Below, piece by piece: positions 3 to 30,186 of a DNA stretch of 64,000 nucleotides; the stretch's first letter is position 1; every line of letters starts with the position of its first letter. Location: assembly GCA_965561205.1 (NCBI GenBank), contig CBEWZU010000001.1, positions 9,857 through 73,856 of the forward strand, read 5' to 3'. This DNA is from an uncultured Archaeoglobaceae archaeon. GTDB taxonomy: Archaea > Halobacteriota > Archaeoglobi > Archaeoglobales > Archaeoglobaceae. The position numbers and the translations under genes were made by a program. The notes under the pieces are model-generated. The model saw nothing but the letters and a program-made list of their open reading frames with translations. It was not told where the DNA came from and ran no database searches.

Positions 3-1124
3 AAACTTCCGGACAAGGTTCGCAAACGAGTCGAAGAAATCTTGCAAAGTTGCGATGAGGTAAATGAAGCTGTAATCGAGCAGATAAAGAAAGCTGTGGA
101 GCAAGAAATGCAATTTCAAGCAGTTGTCGATGAGATAAATCGCTACACATGGTTATTCTGGCAGAGAGGTGCTGATTTCGCATCGAGACAGCTCAAAAGA
201 TATGGCATCGAAATCGTGATCCCACCGACATTAAGCGTTCTTGACGAGGAGACTGTTAATCAACTTGTAAATCTACAGCTTGATTTGATCAAGGGTTTGA
301 GCGAGGAAACGAAAAAGAAACTTGCCTTCCAGCTCAGGGATGGTTTACTTAAGGGAGAACCGATAAGAGAACTGACGAAGCGGGTTCAGGAGGTGACCGA
401 GAAAACGAAATACGAAGCCGAGAGGATTGCGAGGACTGAGGCGACAAGGGTGTTCAATAAAGCGGCAGAAGATAGATATAAAAAAGTTGGAATCAAAAAA
501 TATCGCATTGTTGAGGCGGCAGATGAAAGAACTTGTAGAACTTGTATGCTTTATCACAACAAAATTTTTAGATTTGACGATCCATCAGCTCCACGTCCAC
601 CACTCCATCCAAATTGTAGGGGGACCATAGTCCCTGTAGTTGTGGAGGATGCTAATGTGAAGAAGTCAATAGGAGAAGAATCAAAAGAGATTGCTTTCGA
701 GAAAGCTACGGAGATAATAAGTAAAATTGAACCCGGAAAATTTGTTCCAGATGATGAAAACATAATGAGGCTTAAAACCCTTCTAATACAGGATCGAAGA
801 TTTAAGGAATTGACGGGTAGTAAATCTAAAGAGATCGCTGAAAAGCTGGCGAAAGAGACGATAGAAACTTTCAAACGAGAATTTACGCATCATGCAATAA
901 TTCAGGCTTCTGAACGTGGGAAAAAAGAAGGATACAACTTAATAGACGTCCTCAATGTCAAAAAGAAGGGTAAAATCGTAAAAAAGCTGGAAAAAGAAGT
1001 TCACAAAGCTGGAAAATCTCGGGGAATATATTTATATGTCGTCGAATCAAAAAAAGATAGCAGAGTAATAACGCATTGGAAAATATCTGAAAATAAGTAT
1101 CGCAAATTGGTGAGGGAGAGATGA
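3..1124 (+). CDS. MuF/SPP1 gp7-like minor head protein with C-terminal extension (5'-partial)
   Basis: ERIARTEATRVFN...DERTCRTC...RPPLHPNCRGT signature; frame is open to the window edge, so the start is upstream; ~160 aa extra C-terminal domain. Confidence 0.9.
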   Translation, partial: KLPDKVRKRVEEILQSCDEVNEAVIEQIKKAVEQEMQFQAVVDEINRYTWLFWQRGADFASRQLKRYGIEIVIPPTLSVLDEETVNQLVNLQLDLIKGLSEETKKKLAFQLRDGLLKGEPIRELTKRVQEVTEKTKYEAERIARTEATRVFNKAAEDRYKKVGIKKYRIVEAADERTCRTCMLYHNKIFRFDDPSAPRPPLHPNCRGTIVPVVVEDANVKKSIGEESKEIAFEKATEIISKIEPGKFVPDDENIMRLKTLLIQDRRFKELTGSKSKEIAEKLAKETIETFKREFTHHAIIQASERGKKEGYNLIDVLNVKKKGKIVKKLEKEVHKAGKSRGIYLYVVESKKDSRVITHWKISENKYRKLVRER

Positions 1125-1375
1125 AATTTAAAATTAAGGATGTCTTCATTAAAGCCGCAAAATTGAAGGAAGGAGTATATTTTGCAAGAGAAGTTGAAGG
1201 TGTCAAACTTGAAATAGTTGGTAAAAGATCAGAAGATGGTTTAATTCCGATATTGGTCGAAAAAGAAAAGAGCCACTACATAATAGACATTCCAGATTCA
1301 ATTGTCGAAAAGATCAAGCATCGAGATGGATCTGAAATAGACTTGGTTCCCGATGGGAGTATTTACGTTCTCTAA
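1121..1375 (+). CDS. Small protein with AbrB/MazE-like C-terminal half; candidate immunity/antitoxin
   Basis: ATGA overlap with the MuF stop; IIDIPDSIVEKIKHRDGSEIDLVPDGSIYV resembles the AbrB pattern. Confidence 0.5.
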   Translation: MKFKIKDVFIKAAKLKEGVYFAREVEGVKLEIVGKRSEDGLIPILVEKEKSHYIIDIPDSIVEKIKHRDGSEIDLVPDGSIYVL

Positions 1376-1409
1376 TTGATTTTTAAAGTCTATTCTTTGC
1401 TACTTTTGT

Positions 1410-2780
1410 ATGAAACAACTGGTGATAAAATCTCTCAAAATAGAGGACAGTGATACTAATGAAGGAAAAAGTGTTTACGTGGAAGGATTTATCTCTGCAC
1501 CAATTAAAGACCTCGAAAACGAAGAGATTTCAGAAGATGCTTTGCAAAAGATAGTGAGAGAATTAACAAATCCACCATATAACAAAGTCTTCTTAGAACA
1601 CGCTCCATTCAAGCAAAACACGCCAGCAATAGAGAAAATTCCTATTGGGATTATTGAAGAGTCAGAATTTAAAAACGGAAAACCGTGGGTTAGAGTAAAA
1701 TTGAATAAGGCACATCCTCTTTATGAAACTGTCAAACAGTCACTTAAGGAGGGTTTTCTTGATGCATTTTCAATAAGCTTCAAACCACTTAAAACTAAAA
1801 AACAAGGTAGTAAGACTATCATAACGGATTTGCAAATTCTTGAAGTTTCGTTAGTTGGCTTACCAGCGAATCCAGAAGCTACAGTCGAAAGAGTTTATGA
1901 GAAACAGTTCACACCAGACAAGATCGAGTTTGAAGAATTCGAAGAAGATGTCGTTGATGAAAAGTGTAAATATCGTAGCTGGAGACATCATGTTGTTAAT
2001 CATTTAGCATGGAAATTAAGAAAAGCTGGTAAATTACGTGGCTTAAGAAGGAAGGGGCTTGAAGAAATCGATGGTTTAAAAGTAAAAACTGGGTCAGGCG
2101 AAGAAAAAAGAGACTGCAAACCTCCAGAAGAGACTGGCGGAGAAATGGTCGGTGAAACTTGCAGTGGATGGATCGACGAGAGAACAGGTAAAGAATTGAC
2201 GTGGGCTGAATTTAAAAGAAGGTTAGCTGTGGCATTAGGAATAAAGCCGACACAATACATCAGAAATATCTTTTACGCCGCTTACAAGCAGGGATTGCTA
2301 TCAAAAGAAGATATGAGAAAACTTGGCTACAATGTTAAAGATGATAAAGAGAAGAAGGAGCTTACTGGTTTAAAAAGTCTGAAATTCATCGCTAAGAACA
2401 TGGAGGAAGTAGAAGTTAGAATAAAAGAACTCGAAGCGACGAACAGCGAACTTCAGAACCAAATCAAAGAGCTTGAAGCGAAGCTCAAGGAACTCGAAGC
2501 GGAGAAGGCAAAACTCGAAGAGGCAAAGAAAGAACTTGAAACAAAGCTCAAAGAGATGGTCGAAGAGAAGAAAGCGGAGCTAATAGATGAAATCAAGACA
2601 ATTCAGCCGGATGCAAACGAAGAGGAGTTGAAGCAGAAGGATGTCTCCGAATTGAAAGACCTCGCTCTCAAAGCTTACAGAACTAAGGTTCTCAAGCTAA
2701 GCAACCTGCCTAACAAGCTCCCCGCTGGCTCGGATGTAGAAGGAGCGAATTGGGATAAAATATTTGGATTAAAGAGGTGA
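1410..2780 (+). CDS. HK97-family prohead maturation protease fused to a coiled-coil scaffold
   Basis: VEGFIS...FLEH...PIG...AFSISF...LEVSLVGLPANPEA protease motifs; C-terminal heptad-rich region; lies directly before the capsid gene. Confidence 0.9.
   Translation: MKQLVIKSLKIEDSDTNEGKSVYVEGFISAPIKDLENEEISEDALQKIVRELTNPPYNKVFLEHAPFKQNTPAIEKIPIGIIEESEFKNGKPWVRVKLNKAHPLYETVKQSLKEGFLDAFSISFKPLKTKKQGSKTIITDLQILEVSLVGLPANPEATVERVYEKQFTPDKIEFEEFEEDVVDEKCKYRSWRHHVVNHLAWKLRKAGKLRGLRRKGLEEIDGLKVKTGSGEEKRDCKPPEETGGEMVGETCSGWIDERTGKELTWAEFKRRLAVALGIKPTQYIRNIFYAAYKQGLLSKEDMRKLGYNVKDDKEKKELTGLKSLKFIAKNMEEVEVRIKELEATNSELQNQIKELEAKLKELEAEKAKLEEAKKELETKLKEMVEEKKAELIDEIKTIQPDANEEELKQKDVSELKDLALKAYRTKVLKLSNLPNKLPAGSDVEGANWDKIFGLKR
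2400..2780 (+). CDS. Putative internally initiated scaffolding protein (126 aa), in frame with the protease
   Basis: In-frame ATG (Met331) lies 19 nt after an internal copy of the promoter motif (2374-2380) and starts the coiled coil. Confidence 0.65.
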   Translation: MEEVEVRIKELEATNSELQNQIKELEAKLKELEAEKAKLEEAKKELETKLKEMVEEKKAELIDEIKTIQPDANEEELKQKDVSELKDLALKAYRTKVLKLSNLPNKLPAGSDVEGANWDKIFGLKR

Positions 2781-2786
2781 TGAAAA

Positions 2787-3683
2787 ATGGTGGATACATC
2801 AGTTTTGGATGGAGCGGTAACGCTGAATCAACAGGCACTCAAAGAATTCGTTCACAAGGCTGTAGAAGAGCAAGTTCTGCTAAAGCAGGTCAGAACCGAG
2901 ACAGTAACGGCTTCGATGGGTAAGATTCTGAAGTTCAACATCGGTTCGAGAGTTATCAGATCTCCTGCGGAAGGGTCGTCCGTTACGACAGACGTCGGCT
3001 TCAGCACCGCCGGAGTCGATTATCAAACTGTAAAAGTCATGCTCAACGTCCCGATCACGAGGGAGGCGATAGAAGATAACATCTACAGAGAACAGCTCGG
3101 CAACAGAATAATGCAGCTCGTTGCACAAGCTTTCGGAAGAGATCTGGAGGATTTGGGAATAAACGGTGATACCGCCACACCCGACACTGATCCCGATTAC
3201 GAGTTCCTAAAAATCGACGATGGCTGGATTAAGCTCGGTTCTTCCGCTCACACTTACGACCATCAAGGAGGCTCAATTGACAAGGACGTTTTCAGCAAGC
3301 TGATAAGAGCTTTGCCGCCGAAATACAGAGTTACAGGGCTAACATTCATCATGAGTCCGAACCAGCTCGAAGCATTCAAGGACTATCTGACAAATAGAGC
3401 AACCGCCGCTGGTGATATGGTTCTGATGCAGGGAGGAGAGGTCAAGCCGTTTGGCATTCCAGTCATCACCCCGCCGAAGTGGCCAGACGACGAAGTCTGG
3501 CTCACACATCCGAAGAACCTCGTGTTTATCGTGCAGAGGGATGTCACGATAAGGAAGACCACGCAGAGCGATGAAGTTCTTGACAACGATCTCTATGCAA
3601 AATACGTGATCACGGCAAGGATTGACTACGTTATCGAGGAGACTGACGCCATTGCAAGGGCGATCAACATAGCGGCTCCCTAA
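2787..3683 (+). CDS. Major capsid protein (HK97 fold)
   Basis: 298 aa, follows the protease/scaffold, strong SD GAGGTGA; DLEDLGINGDT and FIMSP...GIPV patterns typical of HK97-fold capsid proteins. Confidence 0.9.
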   Translation: MVDTSVLDGAVTLNQQALKEFVHKAVEEQVLLKQVRTETVTASMGKILKFNIGSRVIRSPAEGSSVTTDVGFSTAGVDYQTVKVMLNVPITREAIEDNIYREQLGNRIMQLVAQAFGRDLEDLGINGDTATPDTDPDYEFLKIDDGWIKLGSSAHTYDHQGGSIDKDVFSKLIRALPPKYRVTGLTFIMSPNQLEAFKDYLTNRATAAGDMVLMQGGEVKPFGIPVITPPKWPDDEVWLTHPKNLVFIVQRDVTIRKTTQSDEVLDNDLYAKYVITARIDYVIEETDAIARAINIAAP

Positions 3684-8196: not shown

Positions 8197-8713
8197 GTCA
8201 AGAATTCATTTGGAATTGTATGATAAACTGATTAATCACAGCTGGACTTATCAAGGTCAGCCAGTGGACGTTCAGGTCTGGAGAGCTAAGCAGAGCGTTG
8301 ATAAATTGCAGTTTCCGGTTATCTTCATCGATTACAGCGATGCAGTTCTTGATAAATCCAACACACCGCTCAATGAGATCTTAAGAGTGGATTTAGTGCA
8401 AGCTGATGACGGATTGCAAGATATCCGCTACGAGAAGGGAGTAATCGTCCAACAATCCATAAACCTTGATCTATACGATAACAACATCCGCAGAATTGCC
8501 GAATTGCAAGAACAGCTGTTTTTGCTGTGCAAGCAGATGAAGCTAACTGGTGTAACGATCTTCCAAGTCAATCCCCCTCGAATTTTAGATTTCACCGAAG
8601 AAGAATTCATCTACCGCAGGCTCGTTGAGGTAATCTGCAAGTTCGCCGTTTCGTGGGAGGAAATCGTTAAGACGATTGAGGATGTTGAAACTGCAGTTGA
8701 AGCTCAATCCTAA
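8189..8713 (+). CDS. Tail terminator-like protein
   Basis: Position between the neck genes and the sheath; FPVIFIDY motif. Confidence 0.55.
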   Translation: MLESRIHLELYDKLINHSWTYQGQPVDVQVWRAKQSVDKLQFPVIFIDYSDAVLDKSNTPLNEILRVDLVQADDGLQDIRYEKGVIVQQSINLDLYDNNIRRIAELQEQLFLLCKQMKLTGVTIFQVNPPRILDFTEEEFIYRRLVEVICKFAVSWEEIVKTIEDVETAVEAQS

Positions 8714-8748
8714 TTTCTTTTTTAAAGTCCACATATACCTTCGATTTT

Positions 8749-9528
8749 ATGCCAAAATCAGAGTGGGTAAAACGAGTCATAGTGATTACAATCGTTTTAG
8801 TTCTCAGTAGTCATATTGCATTAGCAACATTACAAGAATTCAACAAAGCGGCAATATGCGACTATGATTTAACTGACGATGAAAGAATAACTGTAGTTGA
8901 TCCGGCTATGTGGGTTGTGAATTATGTTTATTATGGCAAATGCGATATAAAGATGGATGTTGATAAGGATGGCGATTGCGATAGCTTTGATTTGTGGCAG
9001 TTTGTGACTGCGGCAAAAGAGTTTAAGGATAGCGACATGATCGATTTTGTTAGTTCACTGAACACGATTGATGCTGGTGGAATGGATATTGCAGTCATAG
9101 GAAACATTACGGCACTGAAACAGTGGTATAATTCTGCAGTAACTGTTAAACACCATGACGGATGGGTAGAAAAACCACAGGGAGGTTATTATCTCTGTTT
9201 GGATTACTCAGTGGATGCGATGAAAGTTGCAAGGAAACATACCGAGATGAATGTGTTACATATCGCAACGAGCAAAAGTCACGCTTTCAATGCGTTTTTA
9301 GTGTGCGATGACTGGAGAAACATCAGTTGCTGGAGATTCTTAGAGCCGCAAACTGGAGAAGTATATAACTGGTATTGCAAATTCGGATGTCCGGATGAAA
9401 TAGAAATAGTGAATTTTGATACTGGATCTGTCCAAAAATTCAAGATAGTGAACGGAACTCTAACCGAAACGTTCACAGGAACCGATGAGTTTGAGTATCT
9501 CATGAGCTTAGGCTATGAAACATACTGA
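8749..9528 (+). CDS. Secreted protein with EF-hand-like loop and transglutaminase/papain-like C-terminal domain
   Basis: N-terminal signal/anchor helix; DVDKDGDCDSFD loop; LCLDYS...SHAFN...LEPQT putative Cys-His-Glu triad. Confidence 0.5.
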   Translation: MPKSEWVKRVIVITIVLVLSSHIALATLQEFNKAAICDYDLTDDERITVVDPAMWVVNYVYYGKCDIKMDVDKDGDCDSFDLWQFVTAAKEFKDSDMIDFVSSLNTIDAGGMDIAVIGNITALKQWYNSAVTVKHHDGWVEKPQGGYYLCLDYSVDAMKVARKHTEMNVLHIATSKSHAFNAFLVCDDWRNISCWRFLEPQTGEVYNWYCKFGCPDEIEIVNFDTGSVQKFKIVNGTLTETFTGTDEFEYLMSLGYETY

Positions 9529-9606
9529 TTTCTCAGCATTAAGGCTTCGAGCTGTAGAATGGAAGACGACTTTCTTTTTTAAAGTCTTTTTTCTTAAGAA
9601 ACTTCG

Positions 9607-9834
9607 ATGTTCGACTTCCTGAAAAAAGCTGAGGACAAAGCGGATGTTGCGAAGACCTCAGCGAAACTACTTGACGTAGCAACGCATTTCCTTGTTGTTC
9701 CCTCTAAGAAGCGGATTTACGTCTGATGCAAAGATCAAGATGTCGAGAAAGTCAAAAAGATTATCAGTGAGCGAGAAGTCATTGAAGTCAAGGAGCTTAG
9801 AGGGAGGATGAGTTTAGTTGTTGGAACCTATTAA
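9607..9834 (+). pseudogene. 75-codon ORF interrupted by an in-frame TGA (9724-9726)
   Basis: Starts 19 nt after a promoter motif; frame stays open 35 codons past the TGA to TAA9834. Confidence 0.5.
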
Positions 9835-9925
9835 ATCACGATCCTCGTCGGCTTCGAGCCCGACGTGGTTTAGTTTGGCGATGAAGGTGCAGAGATGCCG
9901 GCTACCTGCACCAGAGCTATCCAAT

Positions 9926-10103
9926 AGCCCCGTGGTGTAGTGGCAATCATGCCGGGCTTTGGAGGGTGTCGGTAAGGTCGGATAGCAATTGCTATCCCCT
10001 CCGTCCGAAACGATGAGGCCTCCTTGAGGAGGGTGGGGATGGAGTAGGACGGGGCGACACCCGAAGAAACCCGGCGACCCCCGTTCGAATCGGGGCGGGG
10101 CTA
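9926..10103 (+). tRNA. trnQ: Provirus-encoded tRNA-Gln(UUG) with 106-nt intron (9963-10068) at position 37/38
   Basis: Exons 9926-9962 and 10069-10103 give a 72-nt cloverleaf: acceptor AGCCCCG/CGGGGCT (A1-U72), anticodon stem CCGGG/CCCGG, T arm CCCCG-TTCGAAT-CGGGG; canonical bulge-helix-bulge. Confidence 0.93.
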
Positions 10104-10114
10104 TTCTATTTTTT
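10104..10114 (+). terminator. Oligo-T terminator after the tRNA, merging into the next TATA box
   Basis: TTCTATTTTTT directly after the discriminator base. Confidence 0.45.
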
Positions 10115-10139
10115 AAAGTCTGATCCAATTTCCCATTTT

Positions 10140-10169
10140 ATGCCAGAAAGAATTAGAGGAGGTGATTAA
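10140..10169 (+). other. Leader mini-ORF MPERIRGGD*
   Basis: ATG exactly 18 nt after the motif at 10115; contains the SD GGAGGTGA of the sheath gene; stop 2 nt before the sheath ATG. Confidence 0.55.
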
Positions 10170-10171
10170 GA

Positions 10172-11248
10172 ATGCCGACAGCTGAGAGTGCCATAACCAT
10201 CAACCTGCAAGATGCGACAGCCGCCGCTCCCAGCGAAACATACGGAGAAGTCATCGTAATCGGCGAAGATCCGAATAAGCTCGACCTGTTCAACCAAGTA
10301 AAGACATACTACTCCCAGTCGGAGGTGGAAGAAGATTTTGGAGCAGACAGCCCCATCTCAAAAGCAACAGCCAAAGTCTTCGCTCAAGGAGTGCAGAGAG
10401 TTAAAGCTGTCAATGCGATGAAAGATGATGGGACTGGTAACGCTGTTGCGGACTACGACACGGTTCTCGCAGATCTGGAGGATAAGAAAATCGATTACGA
10501 CATAATGGTCGTAACAATCGAAGCAGACGATACAAATGCTCAGAAGCTTGTCGATCACGCTGGAGCTTATCACAAAGTCCTCGTTCTGCCGTTTGTAGGA
10601 GACAAGGATTCGGCAAAGACTGCCTTCTCAGCTCTGACAGCGAACGAGTTCGTTTTCGCCGTCGCTCACGACGATGTAACTCTCGAAGCTGGAGAGCTGA
10701 GCGGAGCTGTGGCGGGAGTAATAAGCAAACTCAAGCCTTGGGTTCCCTGCGAGTGGTATAACATTCAGGGGATCAATGCGGCGGGCTACAAAGCCTCGGA
10801 AGTTGACGAGCTTGAACAAGCAAACATCAACACGATTATCGAAATCGGAAAAGCTGTTATCAGCTCCGCTAAAAGCCTTGACGGCTCGTGGATTGACATT
10901 CCGAGGACTAAAGCATACTTGGCAACTGAGATTAGAAATGCTCTGATTAGTTTGAAGCTTAAACTTGCAAACATGGGTTCCAAGATCCCCTACACTCCCC
11001 AAGGACTTAACATGATTAAAGCCGCTATCGAGAAGGTCCTAAGGGTCGCTCAAACTCAGGGAGCTTTGAGAAAAGATTACGTGGATGCCGACGGTAATCT
11101 TGTCCGGGGTTACGAGGTTATAATGCCTGACTATGAATCAATCAGCGATTCCGACAAATCGGCAAGAATTCTCAGAAATGTCAGAGTTACAGCATACCTG
11201 AGCGGAGCGATCAGCAAGATCGTGCTTGATCTCGTAATAACGCTGTGA
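10172..11248 (+). CDS. Tail sheath protein (contractile tail)
   Basis: 358 aa; ELEQANINT...WIDIPR...KIPYTPQGLNMIKAAIEKVL...AGAI-like C-terminus typical of DUF3383-type sheaths. Confidence 0.85.
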   Translation: MPTAESAITINLQDATAAAPSETYGEVIVIGEDPNKLDLFNQVKTYYSQSEVEEDFGADSPISKATAKVFAQGVQRVKAVNAMKDDGTGNAVADYDTVLADLEDKKIDYDIMVVTIEADDTNAQKLVDHAGAYHKVLVLPFVGDKDSAKTAFSALTANEFVFAVAHDDVTLEAGELSGAVAGVISKLKPWVPCEWYNIQGINAAGYKASEVDELEQANINTIIEIGKAVISSAKSLDGSWIDIPRTKAYLATEIRNALISLKLKLANMGSKIPYTPQGLNMIKAAIEKVLRVAQTQGALRKDYVDADGNLVRGYEVIMPDYESISDSDKSARILRNVRVTAYLSGAISKIVLDLVITL

Positions 11249-28166: not shown

Positions 28167-29204
28167 TTGAAAACGTATGACAATCTCTTCGAGATTGTTT
28201 GCTCTTTTGAACATCTTCTCCGATCATTTTACCTCTGCCGTAGAGGTAAAACCTACCGCATCTACGCTCTTGAGTTTGAGGCGAATCTCGAGGAGAACCT
28301 GTTCAGGCTCCAGGAAGAACTTCGTACTGGAACATGGGAGCCGCAGGGCTATACAACTTTCTACATTTATGATCCTAAAAAGCGTTTAATCAACGCCCCA
28401 ACCTTCCGTGACCGCATCGTTCACAGAGCTGTTCATGATGTTATCGAACCGATATGGGAGCCGATCTTCATCTACGATTCTTACGCATGCAGGAAGGGCA
28501 AGGGAACGCATAAGGGTGTGGACAGATTAACAAGATTTCTGAGGTCATATCCACCAAAACAGAAGGTTTACTGCTTTAAAGCCGACATAGAGAGCTATTT
28601 TGCAAGCGTAGATCACGAAGTTCTGTTCAAAATCCTCAAGAGAAAGATCGTGGATAAGGACTTGCTTTCTGTCATCTGGAAGATCATCGACAGCTACCAC
28701 GAGGAGGGAAAGCCAGGTGTCGGCATCCCTCTCGGCAATCTAACCTCTCAGCTCTTTGCCAACATCGTTCTCAACGAGCTCGATTACTTCATCAAGCACG
28801 AGTTGAGGGTTAAGCATTACATTCGCTACATGGATGACTTCGTGATGCTTCATCCAGACAAAAAGCAACTTTGGGCTTGGAGGGATGAGATAGCTCAATT
28901 CTTGAAGAAGCTCAAGCTAAGGTTGCATCCAAAGAAACAAATCGTTTTTCCAGCAAGCAAGGGAATTGATTTCTTGGGCTACATAGTTTTTAGAGACCAT
29001 CGAAGGGTTAGGAGAAGGAATGTCCATCGATTTTATCAGCGCCTCAAGAAAATAGCTAATGGAACCTTCGACAAAGATCCAGAGCAATCGATTATGTCCT
29101 GGATGGGCTACACTATCCACGCGGATGCGTACGGACTAAACAGGAGCATCGCTAAAAAATACCCGATTCTTGAAAGCGGGCTGAAAAAGTTTTATCCGGT
29201 TTAG
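28167..29204 (+). CDS. DGR reverse transcriptase
   Basis: PTFRDRIVHRA, YACRKGKGTH, KADIESYFASVDH, GIPLGNLTSQLFANIVL and YIRYMDDF motifs; 345 aa, no maturase or nuclease tail. Confidence 0.97.
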   Translation: MKTYDNLFEIVCSFEHLLRSFYLCRRGKTYRIYALEFEANLEENLFRLQEELRTGTWEPQGYTTFYIYDPKKRLINAPTFRDRIVHRAVHDVIEPIWEPIFIYDSYACRKGKGTHKGVDRLTRFLRSYPPKQKVYCFKADIESYFASVDHEVLFKILKRKIVDKDLLSVIWKIIDSYHEEGKPGVGIPLGNLTSQLFANIVLNELDYFIKHELRVKHYIRYMDDFVMLHPDKKQLWAWRDEIAQFLKKLKLRLHPKKQIVFPASKGIDFLGYIVFRDHRRVRRRNVHRFYQRLKKIANGTFDKDPEQSIMSWMGYTIHADAYGLNRSIAKKYPILESGLKKFYPV

Positions 29205-30019
29205 CCTAAAATCCTAAAATCTCTCCAATACTTGTCGTAAATTTTTTTCAGCTCTTCTTCATCTTGGAAGTCGTAATAGCTGAGATCGACGTCTCCTCTC
29301 AAGCCGTGACCCATCAGGATCTTCTTCACAGCTGTAGGCATCCCCAAACGGTCTGACTGCTGAGAGAAGAATTTTCGCATGTGTTTGATCCTTAAATTCG
29401 TGTTAAGCTTCTCAAAATGATAGAGAATTGACTTTTTCGAGAATAGGGGCGACTTCGGATTTGTGTGGAGATATTCGACGAGATAATCACAGGCTTCTTC
29501 AGAGAAGAATGTAACCCGATCCTCGTAGTCTTTGGCAATCTCTGCTCTGACATGGATAATTCTGTTCTCAACATCAATATCTTTCAAACGAAGCTTATAC
29601 AGTTCCTCCGCTCTTAAACCAGATGTTGCAGATAATAAAATTGCACCCCTTAATTTCGACTTGTAAGGTTCATCGAGTTTTTCATCAATTTCGTCAATCA
29701 ATTCTCGAATTCGAGCCGCTTTAATAATAGTCTCTCTCCGTTTTGGTATTCTTGGCAATTCGATTTTATCCGCTAACGGATGATTGATGAACTTAAGAAA
29801 AGCTCTGATGTAAATAATGAGGCGACGAGCATATCTTGGTGCGTATTTCTGTTTTAATTGGTTTATATAAATTATGACGTTTTTATCATCAAGATTGCTA
29901 TTTAAGTTTATTATAAAATCGTAAACGGTGTTTTTGTATCTTCGCTTTTCATCGTTAATGATGTCTTTTAGGTCAATTAGTTTACAGAACTCGTAATAAT
30001 AATCCAGAACCGAGTTACA
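29201..30019 (-). CDS. int: Tyrosine integrase, catalytic part; frame runs into the tRNA (probable intC fragment)
   Basis: SGLRAEE, AKD, HMRK, MGH and YY catalytic residues; no canonical start near the tRNA. Confidence 0.9.
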   Translation of the reverse strand, partial: CNSVLDYYYEFCKLIDLKDIINDEKRRYKNTVYDFIINLNSNLDDKNVIIYINQLKQKYAPRYARRLIIYIRAFLKFINHPLADKIELPRIPKRRETIIKAARIRELIDEIDEKLDEPYKSKLRGAILLSATSGLRAEELYKLRLKDIDVENRIIHVRAEIAKDYEDRVTFFSEEACDYLVEYLHTNPKSPLFSKKSILYHFEKLNTNLRIKHMRKFFSQQSDRLGMPTAVKKILMGHGLRGDVDLSYYDFQDEEELKKIYDKYWRDFRILG

Positions 30020-30103
30020 TGCGGGGGGAGGGATTTGAACCCTCGAACCCCTACGGGACGGGACCCTCAATCCCGCGCCTTTTCCTGACTCGGCAACCCC
30101 CGC
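30020..30103 (-). tRNA. trnL: Host tRNA-Leu(GAG), integration site (right attachment site)
   Basis: GCGGGGGTTGCCGAGTCAGGAAAAGGCGCGGGATTGAGGGTCCCGT...GGTTCAAATCCCTCCCCCCGCA; long variable arm; no encoded CCA. Confidence 0.96.
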
Positions 30104-30186
30104 TCTGAAAATTGTCAAAATCAAGATTTATTACATTTGCGGTTTCAATACCTAAATTTTTTAAACGATGTTCCAATAATCTTTTT

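Follow-up and report, generated by a model that had tools for sequence, protein, structure and literature searches.

The SPP1 gp7 and Mu F proteins reside in the capsid at the portal and exit with the DNA at infection. In bacteria, the delivery of polymorphic toxins by MuF proteins is established, and such MuF toxins are found in temperate phages only (Jamet et al. 2017, PMC5576092). The tabulation by Zhang et al. (2012, PMC3482391) lists “MuF phage-capsid-like” delivery for the Ntox49 family and gives Euryarchaeota among the taxa in which each of the two occurs, and fusions of MuF to PBECR domains have been described along with the observation that few such proteins occur in archaea (Iyer et al. 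2017, PMC5512222). In a 2026 preprint (10.64898/2026.08.28.747851), DUF4258 and Ntox49 are treated as one family and assigned to the colicin-like branch of BECR. Virion-delivered effectors are well studied in bacteriophages but hardly at all in archaeal viruses. Here we describe a MuF gene, and the small open reading frame (ORF) that overlaps its end, at the beginning of a 64,000-nucleotide stretch of DNA from an uncultured Archaeoglobaceae archaeon (assembly GCA_965561205.1, contig CBEWZU010000001.1, positions 9,857 to 73,856; hereafter the window).

The N-terminal part of the protein is a MuF minor head protein by three profiles: PF04233 (E 2.8e-18, 67.1 bits against a cut-off of 29.6), TIGR01641 (E 9.5e-28, 96.7 bits against 39.65) and phrog_115, “minor head protein” (E 1.8e-34). 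This core ends at the motif HPNCRGT, with 165 residues beyond it. What is directly established for the part past the core is the homology and fold of its domain, the coupling of the two genes, the exchange of the cassette between proviruses and the existence of orphan copies of the small gene. From these observations we infer packaging, ejection, ribonuclease (RNase) activity, toxicity and neutralization, and we consider it probable, with a good deal of room for doubt, that the extension and the 84-residue product of the small ORF form a MuF-type polymorphic toxin-immunity cassette of a temperate tailed archaeal virus.

The C-terminal string that had drawn attention to the gene, FTHHAIIQASERG...DVLNV...IYLYVVE...VITHW, is present as described, and the guess made from it, a DUF4258/RelE-like (BECR) fold, is borne out by profile-profile alignment, by a confident model and by fold matches that are all to BECR toxins. 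The AlphaFold model of the extension, made with nine sequences, has a mean predicted local distance difference test (pLDDT) of 90.6 and a predicted template modeling score of 0.84, and consists of three long helices followed by a compact domain of one strand, two helices, four strands and a final helix. VIA, a structure search independent of Foldseek, returned as its top match 7vd7_A, the toxin chain of a Salmonella toxin-antitoxin (TA) system (Z 7.9, root-mean-square deviation 2.8, 78 residues), with further values of 5.8 for 5znm_B and 6cp9_A and 5.5 for 9g12_B and 3u97_A. Every VIA match on residues 82-164 is either a BECR toxin (CdiA-CTs, colicin D tRNase, Mycobacterium tuberculosis RelE1, BrnT) or an archaeal hypothetical protein. 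Foldseek gave no match in the PDB at E 0.001 or better for the model of the extension or that of the small ORF, and its only geometrically tight matches for the extension were BrnT (prob 0.85) and CdiA-CT toxins. The domain therefore combines the N-terminal helices, the four-stranded antiparallel sheet and the likeness to solved members that define the BECR fold.

Because the fold-match Z values are middling (5.5-7.9, a range that can reflect a common arrangement alone), we tested homology separately by aligning the profile of 10 MuF C-domains with that of 20 stand-alone PF14076 (DUF4258) genes from Archaeoglobi genomes. The two aligned over 70 columns with a probability of 95.4% and an E value of 1.6e-8 in hhalign, and the reversed, column-shuffled and unrelated control alignments all scored 0.5% or less. 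The last ~80 residues are thus almost certainly homologous to DUF4258/Ntox49. In the joint alignment His316, Arg324 and Thr376 fall on the His, Arg and Thr columns of DUF4258, and the C-terminal helix is also common to both. His316 lies in the first helix and Thr376 on the last strand, where they are predicted to be catalytic, so that the MuF C-domain has a conserved His and [KR] together with a Ser/Thr on the last core strand. The published active site of colicin-D-like and PBECR domains is a His in a helix plus a Ser/Thr on strand 4 (PMC5512222), and the signature given for Ntox49 is “H, [KR]” (PMC3482391). The columns in the MuF proteins match these patterns, and the fold proposed from the sequence alone is therefore correct.

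Sequence searches were of little help here. Nothing useful was found for the extension in Pfam, NCBIfam, PADLOC or the PDB; phmmer against 1.84 billion representatives returned four proteins and a word-indexed search five, all MuF proteins of the same family; and none of 50,697 deposited phage genomes matched it in tblastn. An hmmscan against PBECR1-5 (the PF18809-PF18814 group) was likewise negative, and the Atlas offered sub-threshold leads only for the extension and the small ORF, among them PBECR3 as a weak lead (0.76). The linker between core and BECR domain is modeled as helices at positions 8-31, 41-54 and 56-84 of the extension (AlphaFold2 model m693eb2ad294d, pLDDT 85-96), and its fold matches are generic helical bundles only.

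The small ORF encodes a protein whose model is of very high quality (pLDDT 95.6), with all 84 residues folded in one barrel. Its N-terminal half is a strand-helix-strand-strand unit and its C-terminal half a strand-strand-helix-strand-strand unit. The sole structure with Z of at least 5 among 48,161 chains is MraZ (1n0e_A, Z 5.4, 76 of 84 residues), followed in the ranking by plant B3 pseudobarrels and PhS018. MraZ is itself a tandem AbrB-like barrel within one chain. In a comparison with 28 archaeal members of PF04014, the C-terminal half of the small protein aligns over the full length of their AbrB/MazE domain (probability 85%, E 6e-6, 40 columns; controls 0.9% or less), so that profile and fold both identify it as a swapped-hairpin unit. 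The N-terminal half aligns weakly to the same members (15%), and an internal duplication was not detected at the sequence level (0.4%); the reading of the protein as two related halves is suggested by the topology of the model and by the MraZ match. The AbrB/MazE-like motif noted in the sequence-only reading is accordingly real, but the protein is a complete single-chain barrel without a tail and not a classical antitoxin of the MazE/VapB type. Database searches were again of little help: only one of 12 family members matches PF04014, at E 0.084, the small ORF is not among the 13 PF04014 matches of its own genome, nothing useful came from Pfam, NCBIfam, PADLOC or the PDB, and a word-indexed search gave 10 matches. 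Assignment to DUF2283 or to a zinc-ribbon (MqsA-like) antitoxin, the usual partners of DUF4258, was rejected (hhalign 0.2% or less). We predict that the 84-residue protein is the cognate immunity protein of the BECR domain.

The two genes are closely tied to one another. Every relative found has retained both the extension and the small ORF (33-93% identity); several of these relatives are contigs of metagenome-assembled genomes. In profile searches of 96 Archaeoglobi genomes, the small ORF lies directly downstream in six of six strong extension matches, and two further divergent pairs are also adjacent, a pairing far above the expectation for a chance ORF. As had been noted from the sequence, the small ORF is the next gene and overlaps the end of MuF: its ATG (1121-1123) and the MuF TGA (1122-1124) form an ATGA, and this overlap, with the strong Shine-Dalgarno-like site before it, indicates that the two genes are probably translationally coupled.

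The same gene order is seen for stand-alone DUF4258 genes, which occur in 22 of 61 Archaeoglobi genomes and have a downstream, overlapping partner gene in 19 of 20 loci. Their abundance lends some weight to the idea that the pair is an ordinary type II TA (addiction or abortive-infection) module of the provirus that became fused to MuF by chance, virion delivery playing no part, as does the fact that AbrB-fold antitoxins are known partners of BECR toxins, for example in PrlF-YhaV (PMC11980606). We nevertheless consider this explanation very unlikely. A toxin held covalently in a late structural protein of the head operon would be silent in the lysogen, and the small protein, being folded throughout, has no disordered tail with which to bind a toxin. 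Moreover, this BECR variant was not found as a free-standing gene: the single 113-residue match (G072:C121) runs off the end of its contig and is no proof of a free cassette.

Comparison of the MuF genes of 61 Archaeoglobi genomes revealed four kinds of C-terminus, each of which changes as a unit with the downstream gene. In the first, the BECR domain is followed by the AbrB-like ORF; in the second, an extension of ~275 residues with the motif HEYGHHL[ED]H is followed by an ORF of 107-110 residues; in the third, an extension of ~225 residues with a YHTHP...S..D (JAB-motif) sequence is followed by an ORF of 54-62 residues; and in the fourth, a short MuF has neither extension nor small ORF. All four share a common backbone, with identities of 78-88% for TerL, 35-69% for the portal, 45-72% for the MuF core and 34-67% for the protease. 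Two Geoglobus contigs, L006 and L007, are almost identical in DNA and differ solely from just past “...KALDEI” of MuF to the end of the small ORF, where one carries the BECR domain and a 90-residue AbrB-like ORF and the other the JAB-motif domain and a 62-residue ORF. One N-terminal delivery domain is thus joined to alternative, unrelated C-termini, with the downstream small gene changing along with them, as is characteristic of polymorphic toxins. The degree of divergence points the same way: L052 has a core 72% identical to that in the window and a BECR domain too diverged for tblastn, whereas in L008 the core is 65% and the BECR domain 82% identical. Judged from these identities, the history of the cassette is decoupled from that of the MuF core. 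The divergence of the linker tracks that of the toxin domain (38% identity against 71% for the core, relative to L003/L052). Invariance across relatives had been named at the outset as an outcome that would speak against a toxin; it holds among the closest relatives only, and at wider range the C-terminus is polymorphic.

The alternative C-termini are themselves of interest. The HExxH-type extension, at L045:6299-7804 and also in L049, L050 and L051/L029, has a zincin-type motif on the same head-module backbone, and Pfam gave for it only a sub-threshold hint of Peptidase_M78 (E 0.07). The JAB-motif extension, at L007:147-1223 and in L033/L046 (G002:C10), reads YHTHPxxxSPxSxxD and resembles the JAB/MPN metalloenzyme motif; Pfam found nothing significant in the extensions of the relatives, and the 54-62-residue ORFs downstream are unrelated to the small ORF described here. 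Both labels are meant at the level of the motif. In the two Geoglobus contigs (L006:3-2216 and L007:147-2446) there are, in addition, a second and different MuF with its own cassette, a 135-residue ORF and a C-terminal portal fragment, all directly upstream of the type-A MuF, the head module there being either rearranged or in tandem.

Homologues of the small ORF also occur apart from MuF. Tandem orphan copies lie in two host chromosomal islands (L084:1251-2030 and L085:4738-5703), where they adjoin a lone DUF2283-like gene. In L084 the copies stand beside HicAB, Fic/Doc and lone DUF2283 genes; in L085 the neighbors are GyrA and an aminotransferase, and one copy is interrupted by a TGA. No DUF4258, MuF or other viral genes were found near the copies in these islands. 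Such an arrangement is much more in keeping with an antidote than with a factor for capsid assembly, and the islands may be polyimmunity loci. It also bears on another possibility, namely that the RNase is active but a narrow early effector, directed at specific transcripts of the host or of rival viruses or at CRISPR RNAs and inhibiting no growth, with the small protein serving mainly as a chaperone that keeps it competent for packaging. Phage BECR domains may indeed spare host tRNA and rRNA and target mRNAs or CRISPR RNAs (Iyer et al., PMC5512222), and the coupling and co-variation of the pair would be expected of a chaperone no less than of an immunity protein. Orphan copies in host islands fit protection better than chaperoning, however, and the domain is related to TA and polymorphic toxins, so that we regard this alternative as unlikely.

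Several observations weigh against a toxin-immunity cassette. Besides the middling Z values mentioned above, PF14076 itself did not match the window protein or eight relatives in hmmscan at E up to 10, and the MuF extension was also missed when the host genome was searched with PF14076 at E 1e-5. The small protein lacks the architecture of MazE, VapB and PrlF, an N-terminal DNA-binding domain with an extended C-terminal tail: it has no tail, and its AbrB unit is C-terminal. Orphan copies could be remnants of decayed proviruses. Phage Mu's own MuF holds an inactive PBECR (Iyer et al., PMC5512222), the “ER” arginine is absent from the L003/L004/L005 clade, which keeps an Arg four residues past the His, and in one variant (the upstream gene of L006) the His is shifted by one position; judged from these substitutions, some members of the family may be inactive.

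The last of these points raise the possibility that the BECR module is catalytically dead and binds nucleic acid instead, protecting or piloting the DNA end or aiding packaging, as proposed for Mu gp30, while the 84-residue protein is a DNA-binding regulator or an assembly helper. The inactive Mu domain and the lost arginine can both be cited in its favor, as can the good conservation of the domain among close relatives and the fact that AbrB, MraZ and B3 folds are typically DNA binders. Yet a structural module that was needed could not be dispensed with, nor could unrelated HExxH- or JAB-motif domains take its place on the same backbone. The His and Thr are retained even in very divergent BECR variants, and orphan copies of the small gene lie in tandem in host TA islands. 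We therefore think it improbable. The toxin-immunity reading has strong comparative support in the swapping of cassettes and in the orphan copies.

According to this toxin-immunity reading, the MuF core would bring a few MuF molecules to the portal within the capsid, by analogy with SPP1 gp7 and Mu F, and these would exit with the DNA upon infection. The colicin-like BECR domain (DUF4258/Ntox49), tied to the core by the three-helix linker, is predicted to act as a metal-independent endoribonuclease through His316, Thr376 and Arg324, and would cut RNA, possibly mRNA or tRNA, in the newly entered cell. The benefit to the virus might be host takeover, counter-defense, or competition with resident or superinfecting viruses. 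In the producer cell the coupled 84-residue barrel would be made alongside the toxin and would inhibit the RNase as immunity proteins do, binding it as a globular protein with no tail wrapped around it.

The setting of the cassette (Table 1) is that of a head module, in the order TerL, portal, MuF, small ORF, protease and major capsid protein, and the position of MuF just after the portal is the one expected of a MuF minor head protein. Downstream, a tyrosine integrase gene overlaps a tRNA-Leu gene, with cellular genes (an NTP transferase and a radical SAM protein) next to them. This is likely the right end of the provirus. Since a tyrosine integrase sits on tRNA-Leu and is followed by cellular genes, the element is an integrated temperate provirus of a tailed virus in an Archaeoglobales (Geoglobus-like) archaeon, and its temperate nature is consistent with a MuF toxin given the restriction of such toxins to temperate phages reported by Jamet et al. 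The archaeal setting is real, because the relatives sit in Geoglobus and Archaeoglobales assemblies.

Table 1. Features of the MuF locus and of the integrase end of the provirus (positions in the window are marked as such)
Feature	Coordinates	Strand	Basis or remark
Large terminase TerL	L002:7182-8543		PF03237/PF17289; upstream of portal
Portal	8573-9805		PF04860; directly before MuF (9802-10980)
Full MuF gene	G000:C1:9802-10980		392 residues (whole-genome ORF); start 55 nucleotides before the window, at G000:C1:9802
MuF ORF within the window	window 3..1124	+	Codons 20-392; open at the window 5' end
MuF (SPP1 gp7 / Mu F) minor head protein, N-terminal region and core to HPNCRGT	window 3..629	+	PF04233, TIGR01641, phrog_115; between portal and prohead protease
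Three-helix linker (“pre-toxin” region) joining MuF core to RNase-like domain	window 630..869	+	AlphaFold2 model
DUF4258/Ntox49-like (colicin-like BECR fold) predicted RNase toxin domain, residues 309-392	window 870..1124	+	hhalign, model, fold matches
Shine-Dalgarno-like GGTGAGGGAGAG	window 1109..1120	+	Within MuF gene end, just before small-ORF ATG; read from the sequence, putative function
84-residue single-chain AbrB-like (swapped-hairpin / MraZ-like) barrel, candidate cognate immunity protein	window 1121..1375	+	
Prohead protease/scaffold fusion	window 1410..2780		Peptidase_S78; downstream of small ORF
HK97-type major capsid protein	window 2787..3683		Downstream of protease/scaffold
Tyrosine integrase	window 29201-30124	-	Overlaps tRNA-Leu
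tRNA-Leu(GAG)	window 30020-30103	-	

Other observations on the locus and its relatives deserve mention. A TATA-box-like element, TTTTTAAAG, lies at window positions 1380-1388, ~26 nucleotides 5' of the protease/scaffold ATG (1410), which suggests that a leaderless transcript may start from it and that the MuF-small ORF pair may end the preceding unit. Upstream, the replication module includes PCNA and a Cas4-like nuclease (L002:2959-4369). In some relatives a gene for a predicted membrane protein lies on the opposite strand between the MuF cassette and the protease (L004:2399-2752, L045:8157-8534 and L047:7127-7921, all on the minus strand) and looks moron-like; there is none in the window. 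Finally, intein-like insertions with LAGLIDADG-type endonuclease blocks cut conserved motifs at L043:1-1502 (G043:C42), L008:17-1639 and L085:28-3048, one insertion sitting in the ...N|CRC motif of MuF, another in the L008 large terminase and a third in the host GyrA encoded in L085.

A broader scenario, which we advance tentatively and with less confidence than the reading of this one locus, is that tailed viruses of archaea from hyperthermophilic lineages run a complete MuF polymorphic effector system, in which effector heads delivered by the capsid (RNase, metallopeptidase-like and JAB-like) are exchanged along with their antidotes through recombination just past the MuF core, and that host polyimmunity islands collect orphan antidotes (the AbrB-like barrel and lone DUF2283) against incoming DUF4258-type RNases. 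If this is true, the AbrB-like single-chain barrel represents a new immunity family for BECR toxins. An archaeal MuF-RNase is less novel than the sequence-only reading implied, the class of MuF-delivered Ntox49 with Euryarchaeota having already been tabulated by Zhang et al. in 2012. Searching the literature for archaeal MuF toxins, we found only those 2012 entries and one haloarchaeal virus whose MuF is of a “longer type”, and no detailed archaeal case. What is new is the AbrB-like immunity candidate, the direct evidence that archaeal proviruses exchange such cassettes, and possible orphan-immunity islands in the host. The locus reveals no new principle. It is a concrete and testable Archaeoglobales example of a small RNase-type domain with a likely antidote, accompanied by natural swap variants on the same backbone and possibly by host-side orphan immunity genes, and it would extend polymorphic-toxin logic to conflicts between archaeal viruses and their hosts and among the viruses themselves. 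It also offers a thermostable candidate toxin-immunity pair, and provides a fold and a probable role for two unannotated protein families.

Compared with known systems, the small protein resembles the MraZ, AbrB and MazE barrels (PF04014) in that its C-terminal half aligns to the whole AbrB domain and its best fold match is MraZ. It differs from them in escaping detection by PF04014, in its N-terminal half, a degenerate strand-helix-strand-strand copy, and in having no antitoxin tail. The BECR domain is like Ntox49/DUF4258 (PF14076) in its profile-profile homology over the whole domain, its order of secondary structure, its His, Arg and Thr columns, its similar C-terminal helix and its overlapping downstream partner. 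Unlike Ntox49/DUF4258, it lies below Pfam detection, has a 3-4-residue insert after “ERG”, is fused to MuF instead of being free-standing, and has a partner that is not DUF2283, an MqsA-type zinc ribbon or Imm22. With the PBECR domains fused to MuF or portal proteins (PMC5512222), and with DUF6883/BECR-Tox3 and its DUF4926 (10.64898/2026.08.28.747851), it shares a C-terminal BECR domain on MuF, predicted injection with the DNA, and an active site of the type with His in a helix and Thr/Ser on the last strand; it is set apart from PBECR1-5 and DUF6883 by the absence of a Pfam match, by DUF4258 being its nearest sequence family, and by its dedicated downstream partner gene. A further parallel is with the MuF polymorphic toxins of temperate bacteriophages. 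The host here is an archaeon of a hyperthermophilic lineage, the Archaeoglobales, whereas Jamet et al. covered bacterial phages and genomes only, and the downstream AbrB-like single-chain barrel falls outside the listed immunity families. In common with the bacteriophage systems, the archaeal locus has a MuF core with a variable C-terminal effector, a small ORF immediately downstream, a temperate element as carrier, and a C-terminus and small ORF that are exchanged together as a cassette.

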